DNA from: Candidatus Kerfeldbacteria bacterium
GTDB lineage: Bacteria; Patescibacteriota; Patescibacteriia; UBA10025; JAHIVO01
Reading direction: 5' to 3'
Length of the DNA stretch: 64,000 bases
Assembly: GCA_016214565.1 (NCBI GenBank)
Contig: JACROE010000002.1
Coordinates: 212,584-276,583, forward strand
Positions 2,147 to 31,630 of this stretch are shown here, one piece after another (position 1 is the stretch's first letter; the number at the start of each line of letters is the position of its first letter). The translations under genes were made by a program, and so were the position numbers. Under the pieces are notes generated by a model. That model did not search any database. It was not told the origin of the DNA and saw nothing but the letters and a program-made list of their open reading frames with translations.

Positions 2147-2161
2147 ACAGACGAGAAAAAA

Positions 2162-5398: not shown

Positions 5399-5407
5399 GG
5401 GTAAAAA

Positions 5408-5797
5408 TTATTTTTTCGTTTTGCTAATAATTGATTTCACTTTTTCCACCACTTCCGCTGGCATAAAATGCGCTTTGATCAAATAATCCACCGCACCAAT
5501 TGCCAGGCCTTTCTGCACATCCTCTTGCTGTCCGAGATTGGTCAGCATCAAAACCGGAATATTCTTTGTTTTTGGGTCGCTTTTGAGATTTTTTAGCACG
5601 TCAAACCCGCTCATTTTCGGCAAAATGACATCGAGCAAAATAATGTCCGGCTTGATTGATTGCGCTTGTTCAAGTCCCGCCTCCCCGTCACCTGCCAAAA
5701 CCACTTCAAAATCTTCAAGGTTCATCTTGGTAACGTACATGCCGGCTAAAAATGCATCATCCTCAACCAGTAATATTTTTGTTTTGGAGTTGGCCAT
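5408..5797 (-). CDS. Single-domain response regulator (CheY-like REC only)
   Basis: KILLVEDD...DIILLDVILPKMSGFDVLKNLK...PVLMLTN...K. All REC phospho-acceptor landmarks are present. 129 aa with no output domain. Confidence 0.85.
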   Translation of the reverse strand: MANSKTKILLVEDDAFLAGMYVTKMNLEDFEVVLAGDGEAGLEQAQSIKPDIILLDVILPKMSGFDVLKNLKSDPKTKNIPVLMLTNLGQQEDVQKGLAIGAVDYLIKAHFMPAEVVEKVKSIISKTKK

Positions 5798-5801
5798 ATG
5801 A

Positions 5802-7571: not shown

Positions 7572-7585
7572 ATTCAGCGGCTCGC

Positions 7586-8503
7586 TTAGAAATTGATTGG
7601 CTCAAAAGGATTAGCGTGATACGGCACGCTCACGAGTTCGCGTGTCGATTCATTTCCCTCAGCATCGACTGCAGTAACCGTGTAATAATACGGCGTATTC
7701 GGCTGGATTGACGTATCGCTAAATGAATATTTGTCGCTATCGGCTCCGCTGCCCCCCTGAGGAGCACCCTCCACTAGTACACTGCCGAGCTGACCGCTTA
7801 TTGCAGAACGATAAATTCGCACTAAGGCAACGTCACTTGGATCTAATAATTGCCAGGTGATGGTCAATGAATCGTCGTTTGAGGTTACCGCCACATTGGT
7901 GGGACTCGCGGGTGGAACTTCATCAGTCGCGATAGCTGCTATATTAGACGAGTACGGTGATGTATCACCTTCAGCATTTGCCATGCGCACTACGTAATAA
8001 TATCGAACAAAATTTTCCACCGTTGTATCTCGGTAATTAAGTTCCGCGGATGCATCGGATGTTTCCAGTGTAGCGATTAATTCTCCCCTATCAGACGTAT
8101 TTTGCGATCGATAAATCTGCGCTGACGTAAAATTAACAAACGCCGGATTTTTCCATGAGATAATAAGCGTATTACCAACGCCGGGATTTTCTATGTGCAC
8201 ATTGGTGGGGGGCAAGGGTACACTCAAATCAAGAGCGACACCGCTGTATTGATCGGCATATCCCTCGTGCGGTTTGCGTGATAAGCCATTTAACTGGGAA
8301 TCAGAAAAAATATCCTCCTCAAACTTCGGCACGCTTACCTGAGGCATGGTACTGACCACTCCCGTCGGTGATACCTGCTGCTGGCTGGGCGCCGCTGCGT
8401 AAAATTGGCTGTAGACGAAATATCCACCACCCAGCACAATCACGAGTAGCGCGATAATGAGATTGACAGTTCGTTTATTGAGGCTGTGTTTCTGAATCAA
8501 CAT
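7586..8503 (-). CDS. Membrane-anchored protein with two fibronectin type III-like domains (in the PilP position of the operon)
   Basis: N-terminal TM (LIIALLVIVLGGGYFVY). Two approx. 90-aa units end in YYYVVRMANAEGDTSPYS and YYYTVTAVDAEGNES, which are FN3 G-strand signatures. Confidence 0.55.
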   Translation of the reverse strand: MLIQKHSLNKRTVNLIIALLVIVLGGGYFVYSQFYAAAPSQQQVSPTGVVSTMPQVSVPKFEEDIFSDSQLNGLSRKPHEGYADQYSGVALDLSVPLPPTNVHIENPGVGNTLIISWKNPAFVNFTSAQIYRSQNTSDRGELIATLETSDASAELNYRDTTVENFVRYYYVVRMANAEGDTSPYSSNIAAIATDEVPPASPTNVAVTSNDDSLTITWQLLDPSDVALVRIYRSAISGQLGSVLVEGAPQGGSGADSDKYSFSDTSIQPNTPYYYTVTAVDAEGNESTRELVSVPYHANPFEPINF

Positions 8504-8509
8504 ATAATA

Positions 8510-9091
8510 TTATTGATAGTACAGCGTAAGGTTGAGCGTATAGTTTGTCTGATCTGGATCGTATGCCAATGAGGTTAATTCAAGCAGCGGCAATTGCGTG
8601 CTCACCGCATCCAAAAAACTTTTCATTTTTGAGTAGCTGGTAACATTTTGCACTCCCAGAGATATGTTAAGTGTCTTAATTGCTGCCTTGGCCGCTTTTT
8701 TGGAGCCGTCCGGTATGCTTAATGGGCCGCTATCAATACTAACTAATGATAATTCATTATCTGCGACGAAATCCTTCAGTTCAATCATAATTTGCGGGAT
8801 TTCTGACTCATGGGGTAGGACTGACTGCAGCTGAGCAATCTGTGCGTGAGTGACCGCCCGATAGCGAGTTTCGAGATCCTCGAGCCGCTCAAGGGTAATC
8901 CGGCGCTGATTAAGCGCTTCGAGCTGTGTATTCAAATCAACCACGCCCGCTTCCTGAATATCGGTCACAATACGCTGGACAAAAAAGAGATAACCCAATC
9001 CCAATATCAGCACCACGCAGCCGATGACGACAAAAATAAAGTACCTGCTAAAAATATAAGCTATTCGACGTTTGAGTAATTTCGATTTCAT
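8510..9091 (-). CDS. pilO: PilO-like pilus assembly protein (TM plus coiled-coil plus ferredoxin-like domain)
   Basis: 193 aa. Single N-terminal TM and a coiled-coil-rich segment. Position between pilN and pilB. Overlaps the pilN stop by 4 nt. Confidence 0.55.
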   Translation of the reverse strand: MKSKLLKRRIAYIFSRYFIFVVIGCVVLILGLGYLFFVQRIVTDIQEAGVVDLNTQLEALNQRRITLERLEDLETRYRAVTHAQIAQLQSVLPHESEIPQIMIELKDFVADNELSLVSIDSGPLSIPDGSKKAAKAAIKTLNISLGVQNVTSYSKMKSFLDAVSTQLPLLELTSLAYDPDQTNYTLNLTLYYQ

Positions 9092-10824
9092 AAGGTCGGT
9101 GAGAAATAAAAGATGGCTGGCTGAACCGTCAATTCGACGGTGAAGGTCACTGGCGTGTCCCCGACTCGAGCAGCCGGAGTCGCGCTCCCTATCGCCGAAG
9201 TCGCGGTTGTGTTTGTTGATTCGGCCAGGGTTCCAGTAAAAGCAATCCCGGAAACCGTGACGTCAGAAACAAATGACTGAGCCTTTTCAAATACCATAAG
9301 CTGCTTAATCGCGGCGTCATAATTACGGCCAACCGCTTGCAGTGTTACGGTGCCATTTACATCAGCAGACATTGAGGTGAAATACACGTCAGGACTGGTT
9401 GCCCGCTCCAATTCTGAAAAGAATGATGACCAATACACGTGCTTATCCAGCAGTGTGGAAACATTATCAATCTGTACGCGCAATTCATTAATCTCATTAA
9501 GCATTTTCTCGTATGACCGTATTTGAATATCCGCAATGACGATCTGGTTATTCATTTTATTTATCTCGGTAGTAATCGAATTGTAATACCAGTTTGCCCA
9601 GAGCCACCCGCCAAAAACGACGCCCACGGCCACTACAATAAATGTTGCCAGCATCATCACCCGCGAAATCGAAATTTCTTGTTCAAGCGATTCTTCGGGT
9701 ACTAGGTTGACTTCCCAATTCGTGCCAAGCGGTGCGCCAGCGCCCAAACCAGCCTGAGCCTGTAGCGTGTGAGAGGCCGCTGCTGGCCGATGAAATAATT
9801 CCTTGAACCATTGCAGCAAACGCATCCACCCCGAGAGCTGCTGTTTTTTTGGCTCAGCCTGGGTCATGGGTTGCGCTTCAGTCATGCGCATAGCTTCGTT
9901 TGTTGCGTGTTTTTTCTTCGGCACTGCCTGCACTATCGGAATTGTCGGGGCTGGCGGAACCACGGGCATTGCCGGCACAGCCGGTTTGGCAACTGACGGA
10001 ATTGGTACACTCGAAACTACCGGCTTCGAAAATTTAATCGCCGGAGCTGGAGAAGGTGTCGTGGGCGCAATAACCGTTGGACGTACCGGTTGAATTACTT
10101 TTGGCGTTGGAGCAATGATTGGCGATGAAACTGCCGCAGCTTTGAAACGGACTGACAAGGCGGGCTCAACCGGTGTGGGCATTGCCTCTATTTCTGTTGC
10201 CGCAGGTTTTACCACTGCCGGCTTCTCTGCTCGCGCAAACAACCCACGTAACCAATGCAATAATCGAGTAAAGAATGATCCCTGATGGGTAGACTTGCTC
10301 AAACCAGCAACAGTCGTCACCGTAATCACGTCTCCATGACGATGCTGATCATCCACGGGCTGTGATACTTCCCTTTCTGAACGTACGGGCGAGTATTTAG
10401 GAAACCGTTCGCCCAGTGGCTGGGTTGGTACAGCGGGCGCAACTGGAGCCGACTGACGCCGCATAAAGCGCGCCAAAAATCCACCCGAATCTTTTGGTAA
10501 TGGATGGGGCGTTACAACTGGTTTCGCCGCTGGTTTCACATATGTGATTACCTTCTTTTCAGGTAGAGCGGGTGCCGCTCGATATACAATATGCTCCTCA
10601 ATATTCACTTTGCGCTCGGGTAAACGAACTGCTGTTTCGTCAGCAACTTGTTTTTTTGGTCGAGAAAAAGCACCCTTAAAAAATGTCAAAACACCTGCCC
10701 GCTTCACGCTTGATCGCGATTTTTCGCTATGCGTGGGGCCAGTCATGACAATGGTTTGTTCGCGGGATTGTTTTTCGGTTTTTGCTTTTGCTTTTTCCTC
10801 GCTAGGGAGGAGATTGATCGCCAT
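9088..10824 (-). CDS. pilN: PilN-like pilus assembly protein with approx. 380-aa Pro/Ala-rich insertion
   Basis: Starts MAINLLP (PilN INLLP motif). Single TM near residue 395 (VMMLATFIVVAVGVVFGGWLW). The C-terminal approx. 180 aa looks like a PilN periplasmic domain. A long low-complexity PAxP region separates the INLLP motif from the TM. Confidence 0.6.
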   Translation of the reverse strand: MAINLLPSEEKAKAKTEKQSREQTIVMTGPTHSEKSRSSVKRAGVLTFFKGAFSRPKKQVADETAVRLPERKVNIEEHIVYRAAPALPEKKVITYVKPAAKPVVTPHPLPKDSGGFLARFMRRQSAPVAPAVPTQPLGERFPKYSPVRSEREVSQPVDDQHRHGDVITVTTVAGLSKSTHQGSFFTRLLHWLRGLFARAEKPAVVKPAATEIEAMPTPVEPALSVRFKAAAVSSPIIAPTPKVIQPVRPTVIAPTTPSPAPAIKFSKPVVSSVPIPSVAKPAVPAMPVVPPAPTIPIVQAVPKKKHATNEAMRMTEAQPMTQAEPKKQQLSGWMRLLQWFKELFHRPAAASHTLQAQAGLGAGAPLGTNWEVNLVPEESLEQEISISRVMMLATFIVVAVGVVFGGWLWANWYYNSITTEINKMNNQIVIADIQIRSYEKMLNEINELRVQIDNVSTLLDKHVYWSSFFSELERATSPDVYFTSMSADVNGTVTLQAVGRNYDAAIKQLMVFEKAQSFVSDVTVSGIAFTGTLAESTNTTATSAIGSATPAARVGDTPVTFTVELTVQPAIFYFSPTL

Positions 10825-11030: not shown

Positions 11031-12206
11031 TTATTGCAACTCTCGCATGGCCAAACCGATAGCAACGGACATGCGCGGACCCAATTCACGTAATAATGAA
11101 TCAATTTCAACCGGATGCACCACGCGCGCCCAAGGATCGCCCACAAACGACCGAATGTTGAAGCTTTCTTGAATATACTGGGTTATGTTACCGAGAAAAG
11201 CCGAACCGCCAGTTAACACAACTTTTGAAATCGGCTGTTTATTCTGATTTCGGTAAATATTAGTAATATATCGAATTTCATTCATGATAGCGTTGATCAC
11301 GTATTTCACTTGCTTTGGCAATTGGTCAAGCGGCTGATTAGCCATTGAAATAGTGAGATCACGCTTCATTTGCTCAGCCTGTTCATACGAAACCTGCATC
11401 GAATCCACAATCGCCTGGGTGATACTTTTCCCTCCGAGGTCAATACTCCGATTCAAGATAGGCACGCCGTCAGCATAAATGATAATACTCGTCGCTCCGC
11501 CGCCGATATCAATGACCATGATGGGATTGTGATCATTCCCTACCAGCGAGCGCTCGATAGCGAATGATTCTGTTTCCAAACCAACTAATCGGAGGCCAAC
11601 GTCTTTAAAAAGGGCAACGTAATTATTTACTAAATTTTTGGGAGCGGCGGTTAAGAGAACCTTCAGATTTGGTTTTGAGTCTCCTCCAATAATACTCCGC
11701 TTATCAACGGTATCTTTCGCTGAAGCCCCTTTATCCGTTGGATTTGTGTTCGGGACATTCAATCCTGCAGTATTTATCTCTTTCTCTTTCTTCCTCTTTT
11801 TGTCCTCTTGCTTACCATCGTCGCCAGGCATGCCGCCTAATACCTCCCAATCCAAAATCATTTCCTCTAAGGGAATAGGTACAAATTTCTTCGCTTCCCA
11901 TCGCACCGCTGAAATCAAATCCTTCTTATTCATGGCGGGTAGACTGATGATCGAACTGAATACGCTAAAGCTTGGCAGTGCCGCTACCGCATTTTCTGTG
12001 GATACCTTGGCGCGCTTCAGCAACTCACGCAAATGCTCAGCGATTGCCGCCCGCGCTTCTTTCGTATCATCCTTCACGATATTGTATGTCTCATCAATAA
12101 AACCATACGTCACCAGCTGAGGGCGATTCTGCTCTAACTGCAATTCAACAATCTTAATACTGGATCCTCCTAAATCGATTCCGACGTAACTTTGTTTTTT
12201 TGCCAT
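11031..12206 (-). CDS. pilM: PilM (actin-like ATPase of the type IV pilus inner membrane complex)
   Basis: SYVGIDLGGSSIKIVEL...MVIDIGGGATSIIIY...LTGGSA are actin/FtsA-fold phosphate motifs. 391 aa with a Lys/Glu-rich insert. Confidence 0.85.
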   Translation of the reverse strand: MAKKQSYVGIDLGGSSIKIVELQLEQNRPQLVTYGFIDETYNIVKDDTKEARAAIAEHLRELLKRAKVSTENAVAALPSFSVFSSIISLPAMNKKDLISAVRWEAKKFVPIPLEEMILDWEVLGGMPGDDGKQEDKKRKKEKEINTAGLNVPNTNPTDKGASAKDTVDKRSIIGGDSKPNLKVLLTAAPKNLVNNYVALFKDVGLRLVGLETESFAIERSLVGNDHNPIMVIDIGGGATSIIIYADGVPILNRSIDLGGKSITQAIVDSMQVSYEQAEQMKRDLTISMANQPLDQLPKQVKYVINAIMNEIRYITNIYRNQNKQPISKVVLTGGSAFLGNITQYIQESFNIRSFVGDPWARVVHPVEIDSLLRELGPRMSVAIGLAMRELQ

Positions 12207-12292: not shown

Positions 12293-15200
12293 TTAGGGAA
12301 CAACGCGCTGATAAAGTGGCAACGCTCGAGTGAAGTCAGCTAAGCCCGGCGGCGTATTGGCCACGACTCTACCATCATACACAATCTGCTCCGCACCTTC
12401 AAGGTTTTTGGTATAGGTACGATCAAAATTATAACCGCTGGCGATGAAGAGCCCTGACACATACAACGGCGTCTGATAGTCAATATGCAGCTGACTCGTG
12501 GCTGGATTAATAGGTCGCGTTTCATTGAGCGCGGCAAATGTTTCATTGCCACCGCGGCGCAGACGAATGCCAATGTGATTTCCTACGGTGTAGCCAGCGC
12601 GGTCAATCCAGGATTGAATGAGCGATGTGCTATCGGTCAGCCAATGGACACTCCCTGTTCCCCAGGCCCCGGCGGCTACATCTTCTGCCACTTCTGATAC
12701 ATCCTGAGTCATCGCGTATTCAAATGGATTTGCTCCAATTACCGGCATATCATCTGCCTCAAGCAATCCTTGGCGGAGCTCAAACGGTGCACTTGAACTA
12801 TTGCAATCATTTCCCTGTACGCGCAGATGAGACTCAACGATTTGGGCATTATCGGGCACCTGGGTAAAGCCCGACTGCGGCGCGAAACGTAAGTAAACTC
12901 GATTGGGATTATTCAGATACCAGCCCACGCTCTGACACGGCGAATTCGAACTCCAGCTACCGCCGGTACCCCAGGCAGCAGCATCATCGTCAAATGGGTC
13001 AGCTGCCACATCAGCCAATGTATAAATGGTCCGCTGAGGGGCATACTCAATAACCAGCACGGGCGCGGCTAAACTCAAATGGTCCTGCGACGCGAATGTC
13101 TTGAATTGGTTGGTAGTGGCCTGTCCTTCGTGCAAAACCAAACCAATATAATTCGTGGGGGCATACGCCTCATCATTCAAGAATCGTTTTACCAATGAGG
13201 TGATATCGGGACTATCGTGGGAATCAACCGTATTCCACGCAGTAGTATCATAGGTAACGCTGTTCGATACAACTGAATCAAACAGTGGCAGATTAGGAGT
13301 ATTGGTAAAATTAACCCCGCCAACATTGTTTGAATCCATGAGATAAATACGGCCGGTGAAATCCCCTCCGCTGGTAAGCCCAGTCGAATCAAATCGCAAG
13401 TAAGCACGGCGAATCTCGGCTCCCGCCGGTACATCGGGCATTTGATAACGAAGGAACGTGCGAATTGCCTGTCCCGATGCATTGACGCCAAATGAAGCCG
13501 TCGTGCTCGTCGGCGTATTAGCGCCGGTCGATAATACCGTCGTGTCATCAGGTGATACGGCAACCGTATACGCCACCGGATTTTTACGCCCCGTACTGAT
13601 GATGCCGGATGCAACGCCATCATCAGGATCGCGATCGATCGCCACATACACGCCAGCTAAAGTGTCAACTAATGAATTTACGGTAATATTGCCCCGCACA
13701 ATAAACGCGGCTGACGGCATTTCACTTAAATCAGTAAGCGCCGTATTGTCATAGGTTATTGCCGCATTGATCTCGAGATCACCGTCAATAACGATTAACC
13801 CATTGCCAGTCGTACCACCCGCACCTTTCGTAATCGTCATTGCCGAATTAATCACCGCGTTACCATTGACATAGTAAACCTCTCCGTTCAGAACCGGCGC
13901 CGTGCCCAGACGCGATCCGTTGGCCAAGTCGCCTGCGGTTAACACATTTAAATCATGGCCAAAACGATTCTTCGCACCACCAACGTCGGTAATCAATGAG
14001 TCGATATCGAGTCGAGACAGCACCTTTTCACCAAACGGCAATCCAGCACCGGTCACCAAGGGATTCAATCCCGGCTCTTGTAATTGGCTGGTTGGTAAGC
14101 CAGTCTGAGATGAAGCATAATTCCCTGGGATCCCCTGGATGTCTCCATTGGCCTGAATCAAATAGGTGGCCGTGTATTGGCTTGACCCAGCTGGCGGTGG
14201 AGCCAGCGTCACATTTTCACCAGAGTACACATCACCAAATGACGTCCGAATATACGGGATGCCCAATAACGCGCTGGCTGGGATGAATTCAATCCAGCCG
14301 ACTCCGCTGAGGATAGCCCCTCCGCTTAATTTTGTATACAAAACATTTGAAGATGCGCAGCGGTAGGTGCCAGGCGCTGTCGAAACCTCGAGACATACGG
14401 GATCCTCGCCACCACAATCCGCATCGCCATTGGCGGGATTGCATGCGGTGGCGCTGTAGTGCAGCTCATTCCAGGCAATATGCGGATTTGCATTTCGATC
14501 CAGTGCTAGACTTGGGCTCGTCGAAGAATCCGCAGTCACCCCGGCTGTTAACTGAGGATCATCATAATTCTGCATGCCACCCTCAATCCCATAATCCCCC
14601 GTAGCAGTAACCCAGGCTCCCTGGCCACCATTTGATTCTTGGTCCCAATACCGATATCGAACATCAGGAACCGCGGGAGGCTCGGTATCATCAGCCCAAG
14701 TAATATGCGGTTGGTCATCAGCATCAATCGCCAAAGTTGGCGCCCCGCCCATCTGAGCATGGCGCTGGGTTTCTCCCGTGACTACACCATTAACCAATAT
14801 ATTAGTCATCGCTGTACTTCCGCTGACCGTTACCCAATTAGTCCCGTTCCACGTCCGATACAGTACGAACTGTGGATCGCGCCAGACGATACCCGGCCGT
14901 CCTGCCGATGTCAGGGCGATGTCCGGATCCTGCCCATTGATAGTGACAATCTCATCTAATGCATCAACGCCTGCGTTCACCTGCAGATTAGTTGTGTTGG
15001 TTTGACCACTGGCGGTTACCCAATTCACACCATTCCAAGTGCGATAATTAATCTGCGCACCATTAACCCAGACAATATGGGGGATAGCTGGGGTTGATTG
15101 GGTAACGGTAAGTTTTGGGAACCATTCGGGAATTGATCCAGCAAGACTATTACTGACTTGAATATCATCAACTCCGCCGTCGGGATCAATCCAGACCCCA

Positions 15201-18200
15201 CCTGATTTCCAACGATAATACACTTCAGCCGTATTACCATTGCCAAAACGATACACCACATGAGGATTCGATCCCGCGTCCAGGGCGAGGTCAGGCATGC
15301 CGCCATTATCTATCTTTTCCGGAGTCGTCCAATTTCCTCCTGCATCATCATAATAGGAGAAAAATACTTCCCCATTTTGATCGTACGTGCCTCCTTGCTG
15401 CCAAACAATATATGGCCTATCTCCACTTAATTGGAGCGATGGCCAAAATGCGTCCACGCCATTGATATTGCTCACATTCAGACGTGATGATTGAGGATCG
15501 GTCGTGCCTGGCACATACGCAGTTCCATTTGCCGTCTCCCATTCACCAGCCTTGAGCCGAGCATAATAAATTTGATACGAGTTATTAGTACTATTATATT
15601 CACTCCAGGCCATATGTGGATCCCCGATGGAATCAACCACCAGTGAAGGCGAGCCGTAATTATCCCCCTGATCGCTCGCCGCCCGACCTGAGGCGGTCAC
15701 GCGGACATGCGGCAACCAAACTGAATTATTGTGCGTCTGCGGGATGAGTGAAGCTTGCCAGCCCCATCCAAACAATGTGTAGAGGGATACGTCCGTTGGA
15801 TTTACATCAGGGTCGCCCAGGAATTGCTGGGAATCTATCTCGGTGCCGGATAATGTGTATCGACCGGAACGAGTCGCCCCATCATCGTACGTACCACCCA
15901 GGCGAATCCAGCCCCAATCATCATAGCCCAGCGCTTCCCCTTCTGACTTCAGGGACATGATACGCGCCCATCCGGTAACTTCTCGAGTGATACCGCTGAA
16001 GCTGGCAGTGGCAATTGCCTTGCACTGCTCATCAGCGCCCGTGGGAGCGTAATCAGGACAGTCACTCTGCGTAGCGCATGTCTCGAAGACGCATGATTCA
16101 CCGGCCAGACAATCGGTATCGGCCACGCACGCACCAATGCCATCGGAACACACGCCATACCGCTGGCCAGACGATCCGGCTTGGTCATAGCAATACCCAT
16201 AGCCGTGCCCGCTCGAAGTAGCTTGCGCGACTTTTACCAGATTGCCACCGCCACTGAGAAGGCCCGAGGTCGTGACCGTCCAAATCGCATTATTTCGATA
16301 CATAATCTGAGAACCCATGACATAATCACGTGAAGAAACTTTATAACTATTAACCAGTGTCATAGTAGAGGCCTCATACTGGAAAATTCGAGCTTGGGAA
16401 TTGCTGCACCCGCCACCGACCGAACTACAAGCCGCCCGCTGACAATAATTTCCCGCTCCACTGCATTGATAATCAAAATCACAGACAGCTCCACCGATAG
16501 CGCAGGTTCCTTCACTTCCCTGGGCGCTACACAGAATCGTCGCATCATTATTACAATTACCTAGTCCCGTATGTGCCGTCATCCAGAGATAACGGCCGTC
16601 ATAGGCAATGCCCTGCGGATACTGGGGATGATCAAATTCTATCGTATCAATTATCGAACCGGCGACTGGGTCAATAATCATTACCGCGCCAATGCCAAAC
16701 TGACCTCGTGGATGACTTGACGACGCAGTCAGCGGTACATACAAACTGGCATTAACCCGCACCACGTCATAATACGCAAAGGCATAACCCGATGGCAACG
16801 GGATGGATTGAATCGTTCCGGTATTCAAGTCGAGACGCGCGATGGATGTTTCATAAACATGGCCTGTCCACAATGAATGAGTGGTCACATCAATATTTGC
16901 ATCTACGGGACGACGACCAGTGCCCCAATGCGTACCAGCAACGGCAATGCATGCCGCCTCAGTGGCATAGGCTGAATTAGAACAGCGACCACAGCGACGC
17001 GGCGCACCACCTGCCGGGAGGCCAGTATCACAATGGACTTCAGTATTGGTCGCGGGATCTATGCGTGATATTGAACCCCACCAATTGCCACCAGCGCCAC
17101 CGCCGCCAGCTTCCTGATTAATAACATAAATATCTCCGGAGGTTGGATCATAATCAATACCTTCGGGATTGCATTGTGGGTCAGTATCGTGCGCGTCAGC
17201 ACAGCTCACCAGATTGATGGTTGCTTCCACCGCCAAGGTCGTCGGATTTATGCGATACACCTGATTAGTCCCGTACGCGGTCACCCACACCGCAGTGCCA
17301 TCAAACGCCGCATCCAGCGGACGCAACCCACCGATGGCCTTCAGGTCGACATACCCAACCGTGGTCATATCACTGACGCGTACTTTCAATACGCCATGAT
17401 CAGCATTAGCCGGTGAATTAGACCAGTCCGTCCCCAGCGTAATCCAGTAATACGGACCTCCGGCGGTCACGCTGTCATAAGCAAATTTATGCAGGAAACC
17501 GGGACGGGGTTGTTTCACGTCATTCCAGGAGGCTGCCCAGTCAGTGGTCTGGGGCGGCGTACCAGCGCTTTCCACACATGTAGCTCCTTTACAATCAAAA
17601 CTATCCGCGCACGCCTGCTGGGTATTATTAGCACAGACATTGGTATTAAATGTAATCCAACCGACACCCGCTTCGCCATATCCCGCATCCCAGAATCGGT
17701 AGTGCACATTCCAGTCGTTTGGCGTGAGACCATCGGACTCGCTCCACAGCAGATACGGATCTCCCTCCCCATCAATGTCAAACGCCAGGCCACGGATATC
17801 AAATCCGGTGCGTCGAGCCGCTTCGAGATTGGCATCATTATTTCCTCCGCCGTATGCGCCACTGGTAGTTATCCAGGCACCGGCGCCGCTATTTGCGGCC
17901 GGATCATAATTACGATACCGAATAATCTGAGGATTGCCAGATTCATACCCCATCACATGCGGATGACGTTGACGATCAACCTTCAGATCAATGGCAGACA
18001 CGTTTCCACCTACGCCGGGATTATACGTCGCGCTAGTATCTGCGGGCACGGTGCCGTCAGCCGCTGCCCAGGCTGAACCATTCCAGGTAATATACCGCGC
18101 GCCACTCGTCGTTGCCCAGGCAATATGCGGCGTAACATTCCGGTCAAGCACAATCTTTGGACTTTTAACTCCGGTCGTAGCGCCATTGACGGCAACCTCA

Positions 18201-21200
18201 GCAGACCAGGCGCTACCATTCCAATATCGATACAGTACTTGATTAGCCGCGTCACCCCACACCACATACGGATAGCCTGTGGTGGGATCAACGGCTAATG
18301 ACGGCTGATGATCAGTAGATGTCGTATTGGCAATATCATCGAAATCCGGACCGCCATTTGGCCGTACCCAATCAGCGCCACCCCACTCGGTATAGTAGAC
18401 ATCATAGGTGCCACCGACTTTCGATTTCTTGAAGGCGATATGCGCCTGATTGAGTGCATCGATGGCAATCGAGGGATACAAATCATCGAGGTTCCCCGTG
18501 ATCACGTTCGTGGATACGTCAATTTTTTCATTCGTGGCATTCGTCGTGCCAGGCCGATACACAGTGCCCGTCGGCGCTACCCAAGCGCCAAATCCATTCT
18601 GCGCTTCCGGATTCCAGCGGAGATACCAAATATGATAATAATCTGAAATACCAGCCACCTTCTCGGCCCAGGCAATATGGGGATTCGCATTTTCATCAAA
18701 CACCAGCGTTGGTTGCATTGAATCAAGGCTGGTCTGAGAAATATTATCCGCTCCCAGCGCACCGGCAGCCGTCACCCACTCGCGACCATTCCATCGCTGG
18801 TAGAAAATATCTTTGGTATTGCCCGCACTCGGCCAAGCCTCTGCCCACACCCGATGCACCCGGCCAAATGCGTCAATAACAATGTTCTTATCCGATGAAT
18901 TCGCACTATTGGTCTGCGCCGGCTTATTCGTATTCACTGTCTCGACGGTGCTCCACTGCTCCTCGGGGATGCTCCGACCGGATGAGGACCAGGCATACCC
19001 GGTCACTGGATTGACGTCGCGCGTTTCCTCGAACATGGTATTGACCCCCCAGTCCTCGGAAGTGCCACAACTAAAGCCAAATCCCGTGAGATTATACAGA
19101 TTGAGGCAGTTCGTGGAAATCCAGCCAAGATTTGATGACCAGGCCCAACCCACGATGTTATTCCGCACTAAGAATAGAGTGGCCTTAGGCCCAAATGATG
19201 TTTCAATGCAGGTATTCCCTGCCACGCATCCGCTGGCAACAATGGTCGGACCGTCGCCGTTGCGGGCTTTCATGGCAAAATCATATTTACTCGAGGGATC
19301 CAGCGCTACATCAATACCATTATTACTGCCCCACTGGCTATAGGTCGCCCAGATGCCTGAGCTGTCGCCTGAGGCACACTGGAAATTACCGCCTGACATA
19401 TCAATACTCCCATCAGTCCGGGCGTATCGCTCATACTCAACATTACCATTACTATCATATTTAGTGACGCACAGAGCGTATTGGGTTTCTGGAATGCCGG
19501 CACCACCCTGAGGATTGCCATCGGTAGTGCGGACGGTTACATTTGCCGAGGTGCCTGACTCTGCCCGAACTAATATCGGCGCAGCTGGAATAGCCGCTAG
19601 CGTATAGCGGCAGGTCACGCCAGCGCCGGGAACAAATGAATTAATATCCCCGGTACCATTGACCAGGCGATCGGCATTCGCGGAACGCGCCTGGTAGCAG
19701 TAATTCCGATTGGCTGACAAACCACTATCCGTGACACTATTGGAAGTAATATATTGAGTCGTATGGTTGCTAAATCCAGCCTCACCACCACCGCCTGGTG
19801 CTGATGGATTATTTTCAAACGAAATTCCTGAGTTCGGCGTAGTCAGATTATTAAATGTGCTACCACTCGAATTCGCCATCACTGAAATCTGGTTAGTCTG
19901 AACATCGGTAAACGAAATCGAACCAACCGTCTCAATCGACGTATAGGCTCCAATGCTCCCCGTTAACGGATTACTTCTACCCAGGCGGCCTCGACTGTCA
20001 CGGGCGCGCACCGAAATAGTGCATCGTTGATTTGCATCACTTGTACCGGCATTGCCATCATTGCTCGAATGGATATAATTTGTCCCCGCGGTATTGAAGG
20101 CAAGCGGCGTACTCCGACAATATTGATTATAGGTACCCGTATAATCAACCACCGGCGCGCCACCGACAGGCGCATTCCACAGCCAGCGCAGACTATTAGT
20201 CGTTTGACTGTCGTGATTCGGCGTTTGGTACGTAATTTCACACGGCGGAAGCGTATCAGATGGTGGAATAAAAAGTAGCAACGGAGTGACCTCACTGCTA
20301 GAATTGCGCACCTCTACCTTATAATACTGATAGGTATGAGAAAGTGAACACGCCACCCAAGAATTGATAATGTTATCATTAAATGTTTTGACGGTACTGC
20401 CGATCCATCTTTTTGTTTCCCAGGGTAGCGCTGTCCAGGTCCCCCCTTCACAATCGTCTGCAAATGGACGGGTACAATACGACACTCGATACGAGGTGGT
20501 GTCGCTTGGATTTTCCGGCGATTGCTCGGTGATAGTGACCGCACAATAATAATCATCGGTATCGTCATCTACGCCATCCACATGATTACATGCCACGGTA
20601 ACATTGGGCTGGGCAGCATAGGTCCGCACCGGTCCGCCCGAACCTGACCACTGACCACACCGCTCCACATTTCCGTTACTGGCATTACCATTATCGCACC
20701 CCCGCACCGTAACCGTATACTGTTGATTTGGGCTGAGATTAGACTGTGTCCATGGATCATTCCCCGCCGGAGTGATATTCGGATATAAAATAGAACTCTG
20801 AAAATCAACCTGATACAGCCCCTCGGTGTCACGCGTATACGGAGCCGTCCAATCCCATTTGATATAGTTATGACCTTTGTTTGGATTGCATACTAAAATT
20901 GAACACAGCACTGGTGCGCTAGGTGCACACGGTGGCAGTGTATCATCCTTGACTGCTGAAGCGGCAGAATTTGTGGTTGAGGCATTATTGCCAGTCATTG
21001 AGGCATACACCCGAAAATAGAGCCGTGTGTTTGTGGCATTGGTGCAGCTTAAATTTTTAAACCGAACCGTCTGTCCATTCTGAAACGTTTGCGACCAATT
21101 CTGAGCATTATAAGTACCCAGTGCGCCACCGGGAATATACCCCTGAACATCAGTCCAGGCCGACGCACCATCATATGACCGCTGCACTTTATAGAAGTAT

Positions 21201-24097
21201 GGCGGCGAAGGATTTACCGTATCGCGGATAGTGACATCACAATAATACCCATCAGTCGTGTTGTAATTGCACACCACGTCCGGTGTGGCAGGAGTATTCA
21301 GCGGTGTGCAATACTGCGCGGTATTGGACCAAACTGATGATGCGCTCTCACCAATCACACCAGTCGAATTTTTCGATTGCGCCCGAAAATCGTAACACGT
21401 CGCCGCGCTTAAACCAGTAAGCGTTATTCCAGTTGCTCCCCCCCAGGTCGTATCAGTCGCCCACTGGGCAGTACCAAATCGCGTACTACCGCCAGCCGAA
21501 GAAAAGTATTGCCAGCTTCCGCCCTGAAATATCTGCATCGCATACTGGGTACTACTCGGATTCAGCCAGGGCGAGGTGGTGGGCGCATTCTGTGGAGTCG
21601 TATTCAATGCTATCTGAAAAGAAGTACTGGTGTTATTGGCGCTCGCGGGATTGCTCGGGGCAGATGGAGTACGCGCTCGAGTATAAATGTCCACGTAATT
21701 GGTAATGTCCGGATCATTAACCGTATTATTTCTTGTGTTCTGTGAAAAAGTTCCTGCCGCGTAGTATGCATTCGGCTTCAAATACGCAAACGCAGAATAC
21801 TCCCCTGAGGCGTAAAATGGCGTTAGTAACGGGATATTTATCCACTGATTGAACGTGAGGCAGCGAGCCTGACCGCCCGAGGATCCATTAGCTACCCAAT
21901 CGCGAGTGCCGATCACGCCATCAGGAAAATTCGTATAAACGGTACTATTAGCCGAGGGTGGATCATCAACGTACCGGATATCGGCAGTTGGCGAATAATT
22001 CCAGCTGGGAGAAAAAGCAAATGTGATTAAGCCAATACAATACCTGGTCGGCTCCGGATCAGAGGCAAAATACGATCGCTGATTGGTATATTCATCACCG
22101 ACCCCCGCCGCCGGCCAAATTTTAATCGATGACCACGTTTCAGAGGTTACCGAGGGTGGATGGATAGCCTTCGCCGCATATGTATAGTCATCTTGTACAT
22201 TACTATAATTTGAAATATAACTGCCGGGTGCCTCCAAACGCTGTACCCGGGCGCGATACCAGACGTGCTTATCTGAGTACTGTGTCAGACTCGTGCTGGT
22301 CTGCAGATTGTCAGTGATGGTACAAATACCCGTCGTGCCGGCTTTTGAAGTGGTAGTACAATTATAGGTAACACCCGTGGTACAAGTGCCCGACCCCCCC
22401 GTCGTCAACGTAGTACAGATTTCGGTCCACGGTCCAGTCGATGAGGTCAGCGACCGCTCCAGACGAAAATTCGTCTCATCATCAAAATCATCATCAATGT
22501 CTATCTCCAGAGTTGAAATACTACTGTCGGATTGGGGATCAACCCGGCTGATTACCGGACGCGGGAAATAAACGATCTCCAGCCAGGCGTACGGCTGGGT
22601 AAGCGGCGTTGTCTGCACCTCAGTACCGGTCCGCACACCCCAATTTGGTCCATAAAATATCTCACTGGGAATATCCAGCTGAAATTGAGTAAGCGCTAAA
22701 GCACCCACCAAACCCAGCGAACTTAATTCGACATCAATAATACGCGTGCAGTTTGCTGGGGCGGCAACACAGTTCTGAGTGGCGCTCGTTGGCAGTCCGG
22801 TGGTGTTAATCAACCCCTCATTGGTCATACTGGAGGTCAGCGCCCAGAGTGCGGAAGGATTGCTTACTGATGTCCATTTGTCCGCACCAGAATAGACCGT
22901 GACGTTATTCCCCTCGGTAAATGTTTGCTCGCCAGCCACGCCGCCAGTGCGGTACATATTGAGATACAATCGTGCTCCCTGGACCTGCGCATCATCAAAG
23001 CCTGACCCACCCGGCTGGTTCGCATCGCCCGTGTAGAAACTTAGGATTTGACGATACTCCCAGCGGGTATCCGGGCATGAGCTACAGCTCTGGGGCGGGC
23101 CCTGCGCTCGAGTCCCCGTCAGCCAATATGCACCAGTGGGCGTGCCATTAAAAGTATAAGTATGGACAACCGGAGACGATGGGTACGCATATGAATCCTG
23201 AAGCTGGCCGTACAATCCAAATGCCTGTGTGCCAAAATACGAATTATCAATAACCAGTGGATACCGGGCATGCGCCAGCCAATCCTCGCCACTCGGGCTG
23301 ATCACTTTCGATATTTCATATACTCGCTCATCAATCTGCGTGATGCGATAAGCAATGTCATAACTGGCCCCCGGATCGGTTTCTGCTAATTCATACATGA
23401 CGGGGGCAGGAGAAATAAAGACCACGTGCTTGGTTGTCGTATCATGAAAAGTAATCGAACCATCCGGTTCTAATTTTGGATACAAGCCGGTTAATACCAA
23501 CTGCTGGGTCAAGGACGGCAGTGTCGCAGCAGTCGTGGCTGAGTCCACAATCAGCTCCTCAATGAGCTTCCCTTTCCCCACTGAATACCGCGCATCAATG
23601 CCAGGATATATATCAGCATAGGTGACCTGGTCCCCGATCGCAGTCCAGACGCTATCCTGAGCACCTCGATAGGTAGTCTCGATCCGCCGTTTGCCATCCG
23701 GACTCTGGTACACAATAAAATTACTACTGCTAACATCATTTTTAAAATACGCTTTCTGAATATTGGTAGTATTTTCAAATGCATACTCGGGTTGCGCCGC
23801 GGGCACCAGCGCGGTATCAATCGGTGCATACTCTCCGGGGTTAGGCGTCAGGTATTGCACTGGCTCCGGAGAAAACATAACCGATGCAGTGCCGTCTTCA
23901 TGAAGTACGGGGTCACTTTTATAACTCACATATTCGAAACCAGACTGATCAAATATCGATTCAGGATTGACGGCGCTATGCTGCTGATCCTTAACCAGTA
24001 TGTGATACCAGCCTAATAAACCGGCCAAGCCAATACTACCGACCAGTGCGGCAATAAATAATATTCGTATAGTGATGTAATGAGAACGGGACATCAT
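12293..24097 (-). CDS. Giant (3934 aa) exported surface protein: N-terminal signal-anchor, FN3-like domains, two 7-bladed Trp-rich beta-propeller arrays, YWTD/NHL-like blades, Cys-rich linkers, beta-helix-like C-terminal region
   Basis: Single uninterrupted ORF. N-terminal TM (IRILFIAALVGSIGLAGLLGWY). FN3-type endings (CYDFRAQSKNSTGVIGESAS). Repeat arrays described separately. Start overlaps the upstream gene (ATGA). Confidence 0.9.
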   Translation of the reverse strand: MMSRSHYITIRILFIAALVGSIGLAGLLGWYHILVKDQQHSAVNPESIFDQSGFEYVSYKSDPVLHEDGTASVMFSPEPVQYLTPNPGEYAPIDTALVPAAQPEYAFENTTNIQKAYFKNDVSSSNFIVYQSPDGKRRIETTYRGAQDSVWTAIGDQVTYADIYPGIDARYSVGKGKLIEELIVDSATTAATLPSLTQQLVLTGLYPKLEPDGSITFHDTTTKHVVFISPAPVMYELAETDPGASYDIAYRITQIDERVYEISKVISPSGEDWLAHARYPLVIDNSYFGTQAFGLYGQLQDSYAYPSSPVVHTYTFNGTPTGAYWLTGTRAQGPPQSCSSCPDTRWEYRQILSFYTGDANQPGGSGFDDAQVQGARLYLNMYRTGGVAGEQTFTEGNNVTVYSGADKWTSVSNPSALWALTSSMTNEGLINTTGLPTSATQNCVAAPANCTRIIDVELSSLGLVGALALTQFQLDIPSEIFYGPNWGVRTGTEVQTTPLTQPYAWLEIVYFPRPVISRVDPQSDSSISTLEIDIDDDFDDETNFRLERSLTSSTGPWTEICTTLTTGGSGTCTTGVTYNCTTTSKAGTTGICTITDNLQTSTSLTQYSDKHVWYRARVQRLEAPGSYISNYSNVQDDYTYAAKAIHPPSVTSETWSSIKIWPAAGVGDEYTNQRSYFASDPEPTRYCIGLITFAFSPSWNYSPTADIRYVDDPPSANSTVYTNFPDGVIGTRDWVANGSSGGQARCLTFNQWINIPLLTPFYASGEYSAFAYLKPNAYYAAGTFSQNTRNNTVNDPDITNYVDIYTRARTPSAPSNPASANNTSTSFQIALNTTPQNAPTTSPWLNPSSTQYAMQIFQGGSWQYFSSAGGSTRFGTAQWATDTTWGGATGITLTGLSAATCYDFRAQSKNSTGVIGESASSVWSNTAQYCTPLNTPATPDVVCNYNTTDGYYCDVTIRDTVNPSPPYFYKVQRSYDGASAWTDVQGYIPGGALGTYNAQNWSQTFQNGQTVRFKNLSCTNATNTRLYFRVYASMTGNNASTTNSAASAVKDDTLPPCAPSAPVLCSILVCNPNKGHNYIKWDWTAPYTRDTEGLYQVDFQSSILYPNITPAGNDPWTQSNLSPNQQYTVTVRGCDNGNASNGNVERCGQWSGSGGPVRTYAAQPNVTVACNHVDGVDDDTDDYYCAVTITEQSPENPSDTTSYRVSYCTRPFADDCEGGTWTALPWETKRWIGSTVKTFNDNIINSWVACSLSHTYQYYKVEVRNSSSEVTPLLLFIPPSDTLPPCEITYQTPNHDSQTTNSLRWLWNAPVGGAPVVDYTGTYNQYCRSTPLAFNTAGTNYIHSSNDGNAGTSDANQRCTISVRARDSRGRLGRSNPLTGSIGAYTSIETVGSISFTDVQTNQISVMANSSGSTFNNLTTPNSGISFENNPSAPGGGGEAGFSNHTTQYITSNSVTDSGLSANRNYCYQARSANADRLVNGTGDINSFVPGAGVTCRYTLAAIPAAPILVRAESGTSANVTVRTTDGNPQGGAGIPETQYALCVTKYDSNGNVEYERYARTDGSIDMSGGNFQCASGDSSGIWATYSQWGSNNGIDVALDPSSKYDFAMKARNGDGPTIVASGCVAGNTCIETSFGPKATLFLVRNNIVGWAWSSNLGWISTNCLNLYNLTGFGFSCGTSEDWGVNTMFEETRDVNPVTGYAWSSSGRSIPEEQWSTVETVNTNKPAQTNSANSSDKNIVIDAFGRVHRVWAEAWPSAGNTKDIFYQRWNGREWVTAAGALGADNISQTSLDSMQPTLVFDENANPHIAWAEKVAGISDYYHIWYLRWNPEAQNGFGAWVAPTGTVYRPGTTNATNEKIDVSTNVITGNLDDLYPSIAIDALNQAHIAFKKSKVGGTYDVYYTEWGGADWVRPNGGPDFDDIANTTSTDHQPSLAVDPTTGYPYVVWGDAANQVLYRYWNGSAWSAEVAVNGATTGVKSPKIVLDRNVTPHIAWATTSGARYITWNGSAWAAADGTVPADTSATYNPGVGGNVSAIDLKVDRQRHPHVMGYESGNPQIIRYRNYDPAANSGAGAWITTSGAYGGGNNDANLEAARRTGFDIRGLAFDIDGEGDPYLLWSESDGLTPNDWNVHYRFWDAGYGEAGVGWITFNTNVCANNTQQACADSFDCKGATCVESAGTPPQTTDWAASWNDVKQPRPGFLHKFAYDSVTAGGPYYWITLGTDWSNSPANADHGVLKVRVSDMTTVGYVDLKAIGGLRPLDAAFDGTAVWVTAYGTNQVYRINPTTLAVEATINLVSCADAHDTDPQCNPEGIDYDPTSGDIYVINQEAGGGGAGGNWWGSISRIDPATNTEVHCDTGLPAGGAPRRCGRCSNSAYATEAACIAVAGTHWGTGRRPVDANIDVTTHSLWTGHVYETSIARLDLNTGTIQSIPLPSGYAFAYYDVVRVNASLYVPLTASSSHPRGQFGIGAVMIIDPVAGSIIDTIEFDHPQYPQGIAYDGRYLWMTAHTGLGNCNNDATILCSAQGSEGTCAIGGAVCDFDYQCSGAGNYCQRAACSSVGGGCSNSQARIFQYEASTMTLVNSYKVSSRDYVMGSQIMYRNNAIWTVTTSGLLSGGGNLVKVAQATSSGHGYGYCYDQAGSSGQRYGVCSDGIGACVADTDCLAGESCVFETCATQSDCPDYAPTGADEQCKAIATASFSGITREVTGWARIMSLKSEGEALGYDDWGWIRLGGTYDDGATRSGRYTLSGTEIDSQQFLGDPDVNPTDVSLYTLFGWGWQASLIPQTHNNSVWLPHVRVTASGRAASDQGDNYGSPSLVVDSIGDPHMAWSEYNSTNNSYQIYYARLKAGEWETANGTAYVPGTTDPQSSRLNVSNINGVDAFWPSLQLSGDRPYIVWQQGGTYDQNGEVFFSYYDDAGGNWTTPEKIDNGGMPDLALDAGSNPHVVYRFGNGNTAEVYYRWKSGGVWIDPDGGVDDIQVSNSLAGSIPEWFPKLTVTQSTPAIPHIVWVNGAQINYRTWNGVNWVTASGQTNTTNLQVNAGVDALDEIVTINGQDPDIALTSAGRPGIVWRDPQFVLYRTWNGTNWVTVSGSTAMTNILVNGVVTGETQRHAQMGGAPTLAIDADDQPHITWADDTEPPAVPDVRYRYWDQESNGGQGAWVTATGDYGIEGGMQNYDDPQLTAGVTADSSTSPSLALDRNANPHIAWNELHYSATACNPANGDADCGGEDPVCLEVSTAPGTYRCASSNVLYTKLSGGAILSGVGWIEFIPASALLGIPYIRTSFGDVYSGENVTLAPPPAGSSQYTATYLIQANGDIQGIPGNYASSQTGLPTSQLQEPGLNPLVTGAGLPFGEKVLSRLDIDSLITDVGGAKNRFGHDLNVLTAGDLANGSRLGTAPVLNGEVYYVNGNAVINSAMTITKGAGGTTGNGLIVIDGDLEINAAITYDNTALTDLSEMPSAAFIVRGNITVNSLVDTLAGVYVAIDRDPDDGVASGIISTGRKNPVAYTVAVSPDDTTVLSTGANTPTSTTASFGVNASGQAIRTFLRYQMPDVPAGAEIRRAYLRFDSTGLTSGGDFTGRIYLMDSNNVGGVNFTNTPNLPLFDSVVSNSVTYDTTAWNTVDSHDSPDITSLVKRFLNDEAYAPTNYIGLVLHEGQATTNQFKTFASQDHLSLAAPVLVIEYAPQRTIYTLADVAADPFDDDAAAWGTGGSWSSNSPCQSVGWYLNNPNRVYLRFAPQSGFTQVPDNAQIVESHLRVQGNDCNSSSAPFELRQGLLEADDMPVIGANPFEYAMTQDVSEVAEDVAAGAWGTGSVHWLTDSTSLIQSWIDRAGYTVGNHIGIRLRRGGNETFAALNETRPINPATSQLHIDYQTPLYVSGLFIASGYNFDRTYTKNLEGAEQIVYDGRVVANTPPGLADFTRALPLYQRVVP
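14432..15655 (-). repeat. Protein-level tandem repeat array 2: second set of seven blades with the same Trp-rich consensus
   Basis: Residues approx. 2815-3222. Examples are DPHMAWSEYNSTNNSYQIYYARLKAGEW, PHIVWVNGAQINYRTWNGVNW, PGIVWRDPQFVLYRTWNGTNW and PHITWADD...VRYRYWDQ. Confidence 0.7.
17642..18886 (-). repeat. Protein-level tandem repeat array 1: seven approx. 55-aa Trp-rich blades (consensus PS-hA-hD-x3-PHIAW-x8-12-hYY-x-W-NG-x-W)
   Basis: Residues approx. 1738-2152 of the giant protein. Examples are PHIAWAEKVAGISDYYHIWYLRWNPEAQNGFGAW, AHIAFKKSKVGGTYDVYYTEWGGADW and YPYVVWGDAANQVLYRYWNGSAW. Confidence 0.7.
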
Positions 24098-25566
24098 TGG
24101 GGTAGCGGATAACTAATCTCCAGATGGGGTTCAACGGTCGGAACATTCCCAATCACGTATGCTCCGGAAAATTTTCCATCAGTCACTGGAACAGCCGTGG
24201 TTGTCAATGCAATACTCAGCAGTAGGTGAACCCGAGCGCCAGCAATCACTGATTCGGAAAGCGGCACTGATGTTATACACGCCGCACTATCGGTCCGACA
24301 GATTGTGGTTGTTTTCGGATTGTCTGTCGGGAATGCCGCCAAGCTAATCCGGTCAAGCAATGTACCTCCAGTCGAAGCAAGTCGAGTAACTATACTAGGC
24401 AAGACTTGATCATATACACTCGCAATCGGTTGAATTGTCGCATCTGATAGAGGCGCCTCTTCACTGCTGACCTGACCGGATTGATGCAGCCCCAGTACCA
24501 GTCGGACAAGGGGTGCTCCCTCACCAGCAAACGTGTTGAGCGCATCACCAACATTAACGAATGAGAGTAAACTGACAAATGAAAGTGATGGTGCAGCACG
24601 CAGTAACCCATTGTCATCGGGTAACCGATAAGCACCAATTTTATATTTTTGTGCACGTGTATCTAATTGCGGCGCAGACGAATTAATGCGCCAAACTTGG
24701 CCAGTCACTGGCGTCGAGTACGGCGAACGATATTGATGTTCCAAAACAACTGGGCGGCTAACGAGCGATATCCATTCGGCTCCCGCCTCGCCCAGCGAAT
24801 ATTGAAGCGCGTCCTGCGCATAGGTAAGCCGCACATCGGTAGTCAATTCCCCTGACTGGAGATCAAGCTCCTCATCGGTCATAGGAATAAATAGCGTTGG
24901 TGAGATCGTAGAAAAAACAAGCTCGTGAGTATCGGCATCCTGCAACATGCCCTGTGCATCTCCCAGTCTACCCCAGGATAATCCATTCAGGGCTAATCGT
25001 GGCTGCCAGGACCATGTCTCAACGGTAGGATTATGAAATATTGTCTGTTCAATCAAAACATCATGGTCAAGGCGAAACTCAACATCAGTTTCTGGAGCGA
25101 CCCCCTGATAGCGCACGACTGCGTCACTCAGCTCCCAAGCGCCAGCTTGAGCCTGAGGATATTGGATAGTGAAAGATCGCCCTTCGGTAACCTCAACCGT
25201 CACTGATGGCACTCCTTGATCGATCCAAAAACGCGTAGAAAAAATATTAGCAGTATTCACAAAACCACCCTCTGATTCAATCCAGGACGAGTCAATAGGC
25301 ACTAGCGACCCTTCAGTTGTACGGTATTGCATAGCAAATGGATACACGGATCGTATAAATGTGCCTGAGGAACTCTCTTGATCAATATAATTCTTCCCGG
25401 CCTCCAGCATCGTGTGATCCAAAATAATAGCCTGGGATGACTGAGCATTATTCAATGCTCCATCATATAGCAAATAATACCAACCGATGAAGCCGAGTAA
25501 AAGCACAGCCAGAACTATCAGAAAAACGTAGTGTATTTTAGAAAATGAAATCATAATCCGCGACAC
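24094..25566 (-). CDS. Exported hypothetical protein (490 aa) with N-terminal signal-anchor, sharing an N-terminal domain pattern with the giant protein
   Basis: TM IHYVFLIVLAVLLLGFIGWYYLL. The stop overlaps the giant-gene start (ATGA). The start overlaps the 791-aa gene by 16 nt. Confidence 0.7.
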   Translation of the reverse strand: MSRIMISFSKIHYVFLIVLAVLLLGFIGWYYLLYDGALNNAQSSQAIILDHTMLEAGKNYIDQESSSGTFIRSVYPFAMQYRTTEGSLVPIDSSWIESEGGFVNTANIFSTRFWIDQGVPSVTVEVTEGRSFTIQYPQAQAGAWELSDAVVRYQGVAPETDVEFRLDHDVLIEQTIFHNPTVETWSWQPRLALNGLSWGRLGDAQGMLQDADTHELVFSTISPTLFIPMTDEELDLQSGELTTDVRLTYAQDALQYSLGEAGAEWISLVSRPVVLEHQYRSPYSTPVTGQVWRINSSAPQLDTRAQKYKIGAYRLPDDNGLLRAAPSLSFVSLLSFVNVGDALNTFAGEGAPLVRLVLGLHQSGQVSSEEAPLSDATIQPIASVYDQVLPSIVTRLASTGGTLLDRISLAAFPTDNPKTTTICRTDSAACITSVPLSESVIAGARVHLLLSIALTTTAVPVTDGKFSGAYVIGNVPTVEPHLEISYPLPQ

Positions 25567-27926: not shown

Positions 27927-27934
27927 GATAATGA

Positions 27935-31627: not shown

Positions 31628-31630
31628 ATA

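Follow-up and report, generated by a model that had tools for sequence, protein, structure and literature searches.

The 64,000-nucleotide stretch analysed here (the window) comes from a 1,116,013-bp contig of a metagenome-assembled genome of a Candidatus Kerfeldbacteria bacterium, an ultrasmall, uncultivated member of the Patescibacteria (Parcubacteria group). It contains a giant open reading frame (ORF) on the minus strand at 12293..24097, which encodes a 3934-residue protein deposited as a 'hypothetical protein' (MBI5037317.1). Residue n of this protein lies at window position 24097-3(n-1). An original prediction, made from the letters of the DNA, had proposed that the span 14432-18886 encodes two arrays of seven Trp-rich repeats resembling lectin propellers, and coordinate mapping confirms that this span corresponds to residues 1738-3222. 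We find that the two arrays, referred to here as A and B, are in predicted structures two separate, closed seven-bladed beta-propellers and that, judged by profile-level homology, they behave as divergent members of a BNR_4-like blade family of the sialidase superfamily. Propeller A (residues 1738-2153; 17639..18886, minus strand) consists of seven four-stranded blades of the BNR_4-like type, and propeller B (residues 2817-3261; 14315..15649, minus strand) has seven blades with a Cys-rich insertion of about 36 residues in blade 7.

The repeats were delimited by a reciprocal test designed to avoid circularity, in which one hidden Markov model (HMM) was built from the blades of A alone and another from the blades of B alone. 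The A-only HMM gave exactly seven matches in B and the B-only HMM exactly seven in A, with no further match anywhere in the 3934 residues at an independent E-value (i-E) below 0.01, so that the proposed count of two times seven is borne out. Arrays A and B align in register with 33% identity, and Trp makes up 5.1% of A and 4.0% of B, compared with 2.0% of the rest of the giant protein. Two doubts, that the repeats are an artefact of composition or chance and that the ORF is not a real gene, can be regarded as already refuted: against the B-only HMM, array A reaches 144 bits and the best of 200 shuffles of A 7.7 bits, the arrays have thousands of homologues, a full-length orthologue is 56% identical, and the protein is deposited in NCBI with the gene also called on independent Logan assemblies.

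The blades of array A start at residues 1738, 1796, 1875, 1932, 1980, 2036 and 2104, with the array ending at 2153, and those of array B start at residues 2817, 2886, 2935, 2994, 3058, 3120 and 3195. The blades therefore range from 48 to 79 residues, and the uniform repeat of about 55 residues that had been proposed does not hold. Array B runs 39 residues past the predicted residue 3222, to near window position 14315 instead of 14432, since the Cys-rich insertion of blade B7 occupies about residues 3215-3250 and the final strands reach about residue 3261 (window position 14315). The repeat motif itself is real, with a spacing that differs slightly from the proposed consensus and reads P-S-L-A-(V/I)-D-x4-(P)H-I-A-W-x5-13-(I/V)-x-Y-x2-W-(N/D)-G-x2-W. 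The hairpin at the place equivalent to the Asp box reads W-(N/D)-G-x-x-W, and we rejected a canonical Asp-box reading of it, as its Asp/Asn lies one residue before the Gly and not two. A regular-expression search for the Asp-box motif S-x-D-x-G-x-T-W, which has been cited for the lyase FoRham1 (PMC8377490), found no instance in the giant protein and five in a neighbouring ORF of 1318 residues. The same hairpin gives weak Pfam DUF2510 matches in array A (E 0.0042, residues 1953-1973) and in the relatives P0163, P0170, P0183 and P0188, a similarity that is apparently due to a short motif of the W-D-G-x-x-W type present in both.

Structure prediction, suggested earlier as a check on the propeller reading, yielded a propeller fold for both arrays. 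The AlphaFold2 model of array A (residues 1735-2165, alignment A3) consists entirely of beta structure, its strands falling into seven groups of three to four, and has a mean predicted local distance difference test score (pLDDT) of 85.6 and a predicted template modelling score (pTM) of 0.87. Array B was modelled with its flanks (residues 2690-3300, alignment A5) and has pLDDT values of mostly 82-96 over residues 2789-3260, the blade-7 insertion included; both flanks fall below 50, up to residue 2788 on the N-terminal side. A second line of evidence comes from an exhaustive HMMER search with a 14-blade profile (A2) against 1.84 billion representatives of 50%-identity clusters, which matched 20,139 cluster representatives at E <= 1e-3, of which 8,694 reached E <= 1e-10 and 1,049 reached E <= 1e-30. 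Among the best 150 relatives, the matched blades numbered seven in 24 proteins, 14 in 50, 21 in six and 28 in one, so that 81 carry a multiple of seven, and 35 more are one short of such a multiple. This clustering is independent evidence for a seven-blade unit and, together with the confident models, bears out the claim of two seven-bladed propellers.

Comparisons of the fold lead mostly to proteins that act on carbohydrates. The structural-neighbour table lists the PLL lectin (27.7), the BP39L lectin (26.4) and the CV39L lectin (23.9), the enzymes GH145 (22.3), PL42 (21.8) and PL25 (21.0), and, as other entries, CylK (28.4), Integrin alpha-M (23.7) and YncE (23.5). Foldseek placed 22 PLL/PHL entries on top (E 3e-10 to 1e-8), followed by sialidases, GH145, PL25 and PL24; for array B, sialidases, GH145, PLL3/4/5, PL42, PL25 and PL24 were intermixed at similar E-values. 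Tectonin and the six-bladed AAL/RSL fucose lectins, to which the arrays had also been likened, appeared in no Pfam scan or fold-search list. The PLL-like label is more nuanced, as it is appropriate at the level of the fold (a seven-bladed 'W-motif' propeller) and does not extend to sequence, by which the arrays group with BNR_4.

The grouping with BNR_4 is drawn chiefly from the relatives. All ten relatives scanned exceeded the gathering score of Pfam BNR_4 (PF15892), and most of the 120 relatives listed from the annotated collection carry this domain, often together with T9SS sorting, CARDB, Ig-like or FlgD-Ig domains; their sources include Caldisericia, Thermoplasmata, Marinimicrobia and Myxococcota. 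The profile search of that collection listed proteins of up to about 810 residues only, and a word-indexed homologue search with array A came back empty, the giant orthologues probably being beyond the reach of such a search; the exhaustive HMMER search did recover them, including one with 55% identity. Against all sequences in the PDB, the 24-sequence array profile (A3) recovered a single significant relative, the PL25 ulvan lyase 5UAM (E 5.9e-5), through a match spanning chain residues 257-353 only, or about two blades of the repeat motif. The seven-blade profile was needed to reach PL25, as a single-blade profile found nothing significant among the same sequences. The characterised members of BNR_4 are polysaccharide lyases, namely the PL25 lyases and the PL42 L-Rha-alpha-1,4-GlcA lyase FoRham1 (PMC8377490, PMC13193363).

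Conservation was assessed across six giant orthologues that are 37-57% identical over array A. Forty-two of the 67 invariant positions in array A fall within predicted strands and most of the others are Gly, Asp or Pro, those outside the strands presumably sitting at turns; outside the strands, the invariant positions of these six orthologues include no His, Tyr or Arg, and the loops between strands B and C vary among them, with insertions and deletions. Because the invariant positions lie mainly in strands and the inter-strand loops are variable, the conserved aromatic residues are at least partly structural, and the motif that had been likened to sugar-binding pockets is largely the structural skeleton of the blade. 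In this arrangement P-S-L-A-x-D, P-H-I-A-W, I-x-Y-x-x-W and N-G-x-x-W would chiefly supply the residues of the four strands and of two tight turns in each blade, and a ligand would meet a surface made up of the variable B-C loops and the loops that join the blades. The motif may also line the inter-blade grooves, as Trp residues do in PLL lectins, in which a hydrophobic site of two conserved Trp and a Ser/Thr in turn T2 and a polar site of Arg/Glu/Gln/Trp are repeated between blades (PMC5584973, PMC12203525).

These observations bear directly on whether the propellers could be enzymes with one active site on the top face, at which a polysaccharide of the host or of a matrix would be cut and the host envelope so opened. 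Such a role would agree with PL25 being the sole significant sequence relative of solved structure, with the BNR_4 domains of the relatives, with the presence of GH145, PL42, PL25, PL24 and sialidases among the best Foldseek matches of array B, and with the low internal symmetry of the blades, a trait expected of an enzyme more than of a lectin. The active residues of PL25 are His, Tyr and Arg, located in an upper-surface cleft (catalytic His123/Tyr188/Arg204, with a Zn site of His/His/Cys/His; PMC13193363). The six orthologues, however, have no invariant residue of these kinds outside the strands and carry variable loops with insertions and deletions; the similarity to PL25 itself is confined to the repeat motif of about two blades. 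We regard an enzymatic role as quite unlikely, and prefer a non-catalytic one, since no conserved catalytic constellation was seen.

A non-catalytic propeller need not bind sugar. Both arrays could be modules that bind a protein or another ligand, in the manner of integrin alpha, PilY1 or YncE, or they could simply hold parts of a giant surface fibre rigidly apart. The almost entirely structural nature of the conserved positions would suit such a role, and a published screen graded a BNR_4-overlapping cluster of fibrillar-adhesin-like proteins as 'ambiguous' in function (PMC9210967). Set against this, carbohydrate is the target both of the nearest folds and of the only characterised proteins related in sequence, and no match to the FG-GAP or PilC/PilY1 families was reported in the Pfam scans of the giant protein and its arrays. 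We consider a role unrelated to carbohydrate doubtful, and carbohydrate recognition remains the function that we prefer.

The region between the two arrays (about residues 2200-2640; 16178..17500, minus strand) contains, by eye, about seven FDGxxxW blades with Cys-rich insertions; judging from its sequence, it probably forms a third propeller, built of another type of blade. The strings FDGTAVWVTAYGTNQVYRINP and CSAQGSEGTCAIGGAVCDFDYQCSGAGNYC, which had been quoted from here, are both located between the arrays. The blades had been described as YWTD/NHL-like; no YWTD or NHL model was reported, and the region is instead weakly YVTN- or glutaminyl-cyclase-like, with 22.0 bits against Glu_cyclase_2 (cut-off 22.3), E 0.014 against TIGR02276 (YVTN) and a further report of DUF6923. 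Among the giant relatives compared, the region (here about residues 2183-2617) is confined to the window protein and P0005, with a partial counterpart in P0126, and by this sequence comparison it is a lineage-specific insertion that most giant orthologues lack.

Short Gly-Trp ('GW') motifs flank both propellers. Those N-terminal to propeller A (residues 1650-1707; 18977..19150, minus strand) comprise VGWAWSSNLGWISTNC ... TGYAWSSSG, and propeller A is closed by GVGWITFNTNVC (residues 2144-2156; 17630..17668, minus strand; pLDDT below 50), of which the G-x-G-W-I and the two Cys are invariant in the six orthologues. Propeller B is preceded by TGWARIMSL, WGWIRLGG and FGWGWQ (residues 2722-2803; 15689..15934, minus strand), with pLDDT below 50 up to residue 2788, and followed by GVGWIEFIP (residues 3265-3273; 14279..14305, minus strand). 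It looks as if each propeller has been inserted into a small beta domain bracketed by Gly-Trp motifs.

Beyond these regions, the giant protein has a hydrophobic anchor at its N-terminus (residues ~8-34). The N-terminal sequence MMSRSHYITIRILFIAALVG contains no prepilin (class III) motif, unlike the pilin encoded at 3450-3902, which does have a G-F-T-L-I-E-type motif. Scans of the whole protein and of seven sub-segments with Pfam and NCBIfam returned nothing significant, and the sub-threshold hints were confined to DUF7948, fn3, CBM96, Glu_cyclase_2 and YVTN. The match to CBM96, a carbohydrate-binding module, covers residues 3262-3600 (13298-14314, minus strand) with a score of 15.1 bits (cut-off 26; E 0.021), and falls within the C-terminal ~700 residues, which are well conserved in the orthologues (37-61% identity). 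The protein contains 57 N-x-S/T sequons compared with 44.9 ± 5.9 in shuffles, a difference of about two standard deviations that is too weak to interpret. MBI5037317.1, until now a 'hypothetical protein', is thus resolved into a defined set of expressible, foldable domains.

The giant ORF is followed by type IV pilus genes. pilM (11031..12206, minus strand; PilM_2 E 5e-45) begins 86 bp downstream, and the subsequent genes, spanning 3450..10824 and all on the strand of the giant ORF, encode a PilN-like protein (9088-10824), PilO (8510-9091), an FN3 protein (7586-8503), PilB (5802-7571), a response regulator (5408-5797), PilC (4193-5398) and the pilin (3450-3902). Just downstream of the pilin gene, at 1172-3352 on the minus strand, lie genes for a GT2 glycosyltransferase and a PMT_2 (protein O-mannosyltransferase-like) protein, which may glycosylate pilins or surface proteins.

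Four co-directional, partly overlapping ORFs with N-terminal hydrophobic segments lie upstream of the giant ORF (24094..35587, minus strand). The nearest, of 490 residues (24094-25566, minus strand), is a paralogue of the first ~390 residues of the giant protein (25% identity, E 2e-11), and its stop codon overlaps the start codon of the giant ORF (ATGA), suggesting translational coupling. The other three, of 791, 1230 and 1318 residues (25551-35587, minus strand), are mutual paralogues with a conserved N-terminal region in common, and contain FDGxxxW blades and Cys-rich linkers. The C-terminal end of the 1318-residue protein is a canonical BNR/Sortilin-type propeller with five Asp boxes, and the 1230-residue protein has sub-threshold matches to acidic double-disulfide repeats and to phage baseplate gp8/gp10. 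Further along the window, three tRNA genes (Ser-GCT, Ser-TGA and Arg-GCG) are located at 41293-42329 on the plus strand.

Conservation of this gene order was examined in three orthologous loci found by a genome scan, two in Patescibacteria metagenome-assembled genomes (MAGs; 56% and 50% identity) and one in an unclassified MAG (35%). In all three (L003, L004 and L005) pilM directly follows the giant gene, and the two long loci retain the order 791-residue homologue, giant gene, pilM, pilN, pilO and FN3. A scan of metagenome contigs for more loci found only distant relatives (<= 33% identity), none with pilM nearby. The full-length orthologue P0005 (3893 residues, equal in length to the ORF at L003) is 56% identical over residues 36-3934, and eleven giant relatives of 3053-5073 residues have in common the N-terminal region and array A, as well as the C-terminal ~700 residues and some or all of array B.

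Taken with the structural and family evidence, this context leads us to favour, with moderate confidence, a reading in which both propellers recognise carbohydrate without catalysis, as parts of a membrane-anchored giant protein that would take part in attachment to another cell together with the type IV pilus or alongside it. Recognition of carbohydrate is suggested because the near neighbours in fold and sequence, CylK apart, bind or cleave sugars (PLL, GH145, PL42, PL25, PL24 and sialidases). The N-terminal membrane anchor and the conserved place next to pilMNO agree with a role at the surface or in adhesion, and attachment at the surface is further suggested by the surface and secretion domains of the relatives and by the conserved linkage to the pilus genes; the propellers are presumably extracellular. 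There is also precedent for attachment by comparable proteins: in TM7x, a Saccharibacterium, the pilus-locus protein PilX2 has a seven-bladed PLL-lectin-like propeller and its deletion lowers host binding (PMC11623550), and giant membrane proteins of other bacteria of the candidate phyla radiation (CPR) have been inferred to be host-attachment factors (PMC8080830, PMC11809585). Under this reading, the presumed ligand would be a carbohydrate on the surface of another cell, either a host wall polysaccharide or a glycoprotein, and the giant protein would be a pilus-linked adhesin, any cooperation with the pilus being likewise presumed.

Several observations weigh against such a function. By sequence the arrays are related to a family in which those members that have been characterised, PL25 and PL42, are enzymes, and even membership of that family is distant: array B matches BNR_4 at E 5.7e-5 and 23.1 bits, under the gathering cut-off of 27.3 bits, array A does not match it at E <= 10, and the scan of the whole protein gave no BNR_4 match. 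The resemblance to lectins is equally remote in sequence, as the structural alignments with PLL have an identity of just 9-12% and no PLL/PHL chain was found at E <= 10 when the blade or array profile was compared with all PDB sequences. Blade-to-blade identity within the two arrays is 25-29%, near the bottom of 83 seven-blade arrays compared (median 44%, maximum 71%), which makes seven equivalent lectin or binding sites unlikely. Glycan binding by the propellers is, in short, a conclusion by comparison and as such unproven.

The kind of domain described here is already known and very common, with a BNR_4-like blade present in 20,139 clusters, and the two arrays add one divergent member; the findings are useful and testable and will not surprise a specialist. 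Most proteins with such blades are uncharacterised, so a lectin function, if demonstrated, would re-annotate many of them. To our knowledge, almost nothing is known about host recognition or attachment in most Patescibacteria (CPR) outside the Saccharibacteria. Our literature searches found no description of Patescibacteria proteins of 3,000-5,000 residues with two such propellers, nor of the conserved place of three such proteins directly upstream of pilM. The conserved gene order ties the giant protein to type IV pilus genes, and carbohydrate recognition by two BNR_4/PLL-like propellers becomes a concrete hypothesis that can be tested with recombinant domains. More speculatively, it is conceivable that the giant protein is a host-specificity determinant of Kerfeldbacteria-like episymbionts, working with the adjacent pilus machinery, in which the two diverged BNR_4-type propellers would form a modular glycan-recognition head that is remodelled between lineages by the third propeller to track host cell-wall polysaccharides. 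We hold this extension only tentatively; if it were true, the BNR_4 propeller would serve, beyond its use as an enzyme fold, as a scaffold for lectins in the way that PLL does.

Like the characterised BNR_4 members PL25 (5UAM) and PL42 FoRham1 (7ESK), the arrays have seven four-stranded blades, and they share the blade sequence pattern of this family (as in PL25 'LDAQGQPHIA...RWNGNEWV'). In contrast to BNR_4 proteins, the window arrays lie under the Pfam cut-off, lack the canonical Asp box and have no conserved catalytic-type loop residues that we could see, and they occur twice in an anchored protein of 3934 residues, whereas the characterised enzymes are secreted and have about 450 residues. 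With the PLL family (PLL, PLL2-5 and PHL of Photorhabdus, BP39L and CV39L) they share Trp-rich four-stranded blades in seven-fold arrangement; a trait of that family is the binding of L-fucose or O-methylated sugars. The PLL blades are nearly identical repeats of about 48 residues, whereas those of the window arrays have the wider range of lengths and lower identity given above; PLL proteins are also single-domain proteins of about 340-350 residues that form oligomers, while the window propellers are embedded in a giant protein. The C-terminal propeller of CylK (7RON), a Friedel-Crafts alkylating enzyme, is 11% identical and has no contextual or sequence link to the arrays.

Propellers also occur in proteins encoded at type IV pilus loci. 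TM7x PilX2, Pseudomonas PilY1 and the giant protein are all encoded with pilus genes and have a seven-bladed propeller, although no PilC/PilY1 Pfam match was reported for the giant protein. PilX2 and the giant protein further share the absence of a PilD-type signal and a PLL-type resemblance, and PilX2 is needed for normal host binding (PMC11623550). The propeller of PilX2, which we compared with the giant protein by its description only, is described as having RCC1 repeats and so belongs to a different blade family. PilX2 and PilY1 have one propeller each, whereas the giant protein carries two and a probable third within its 3934 residues.

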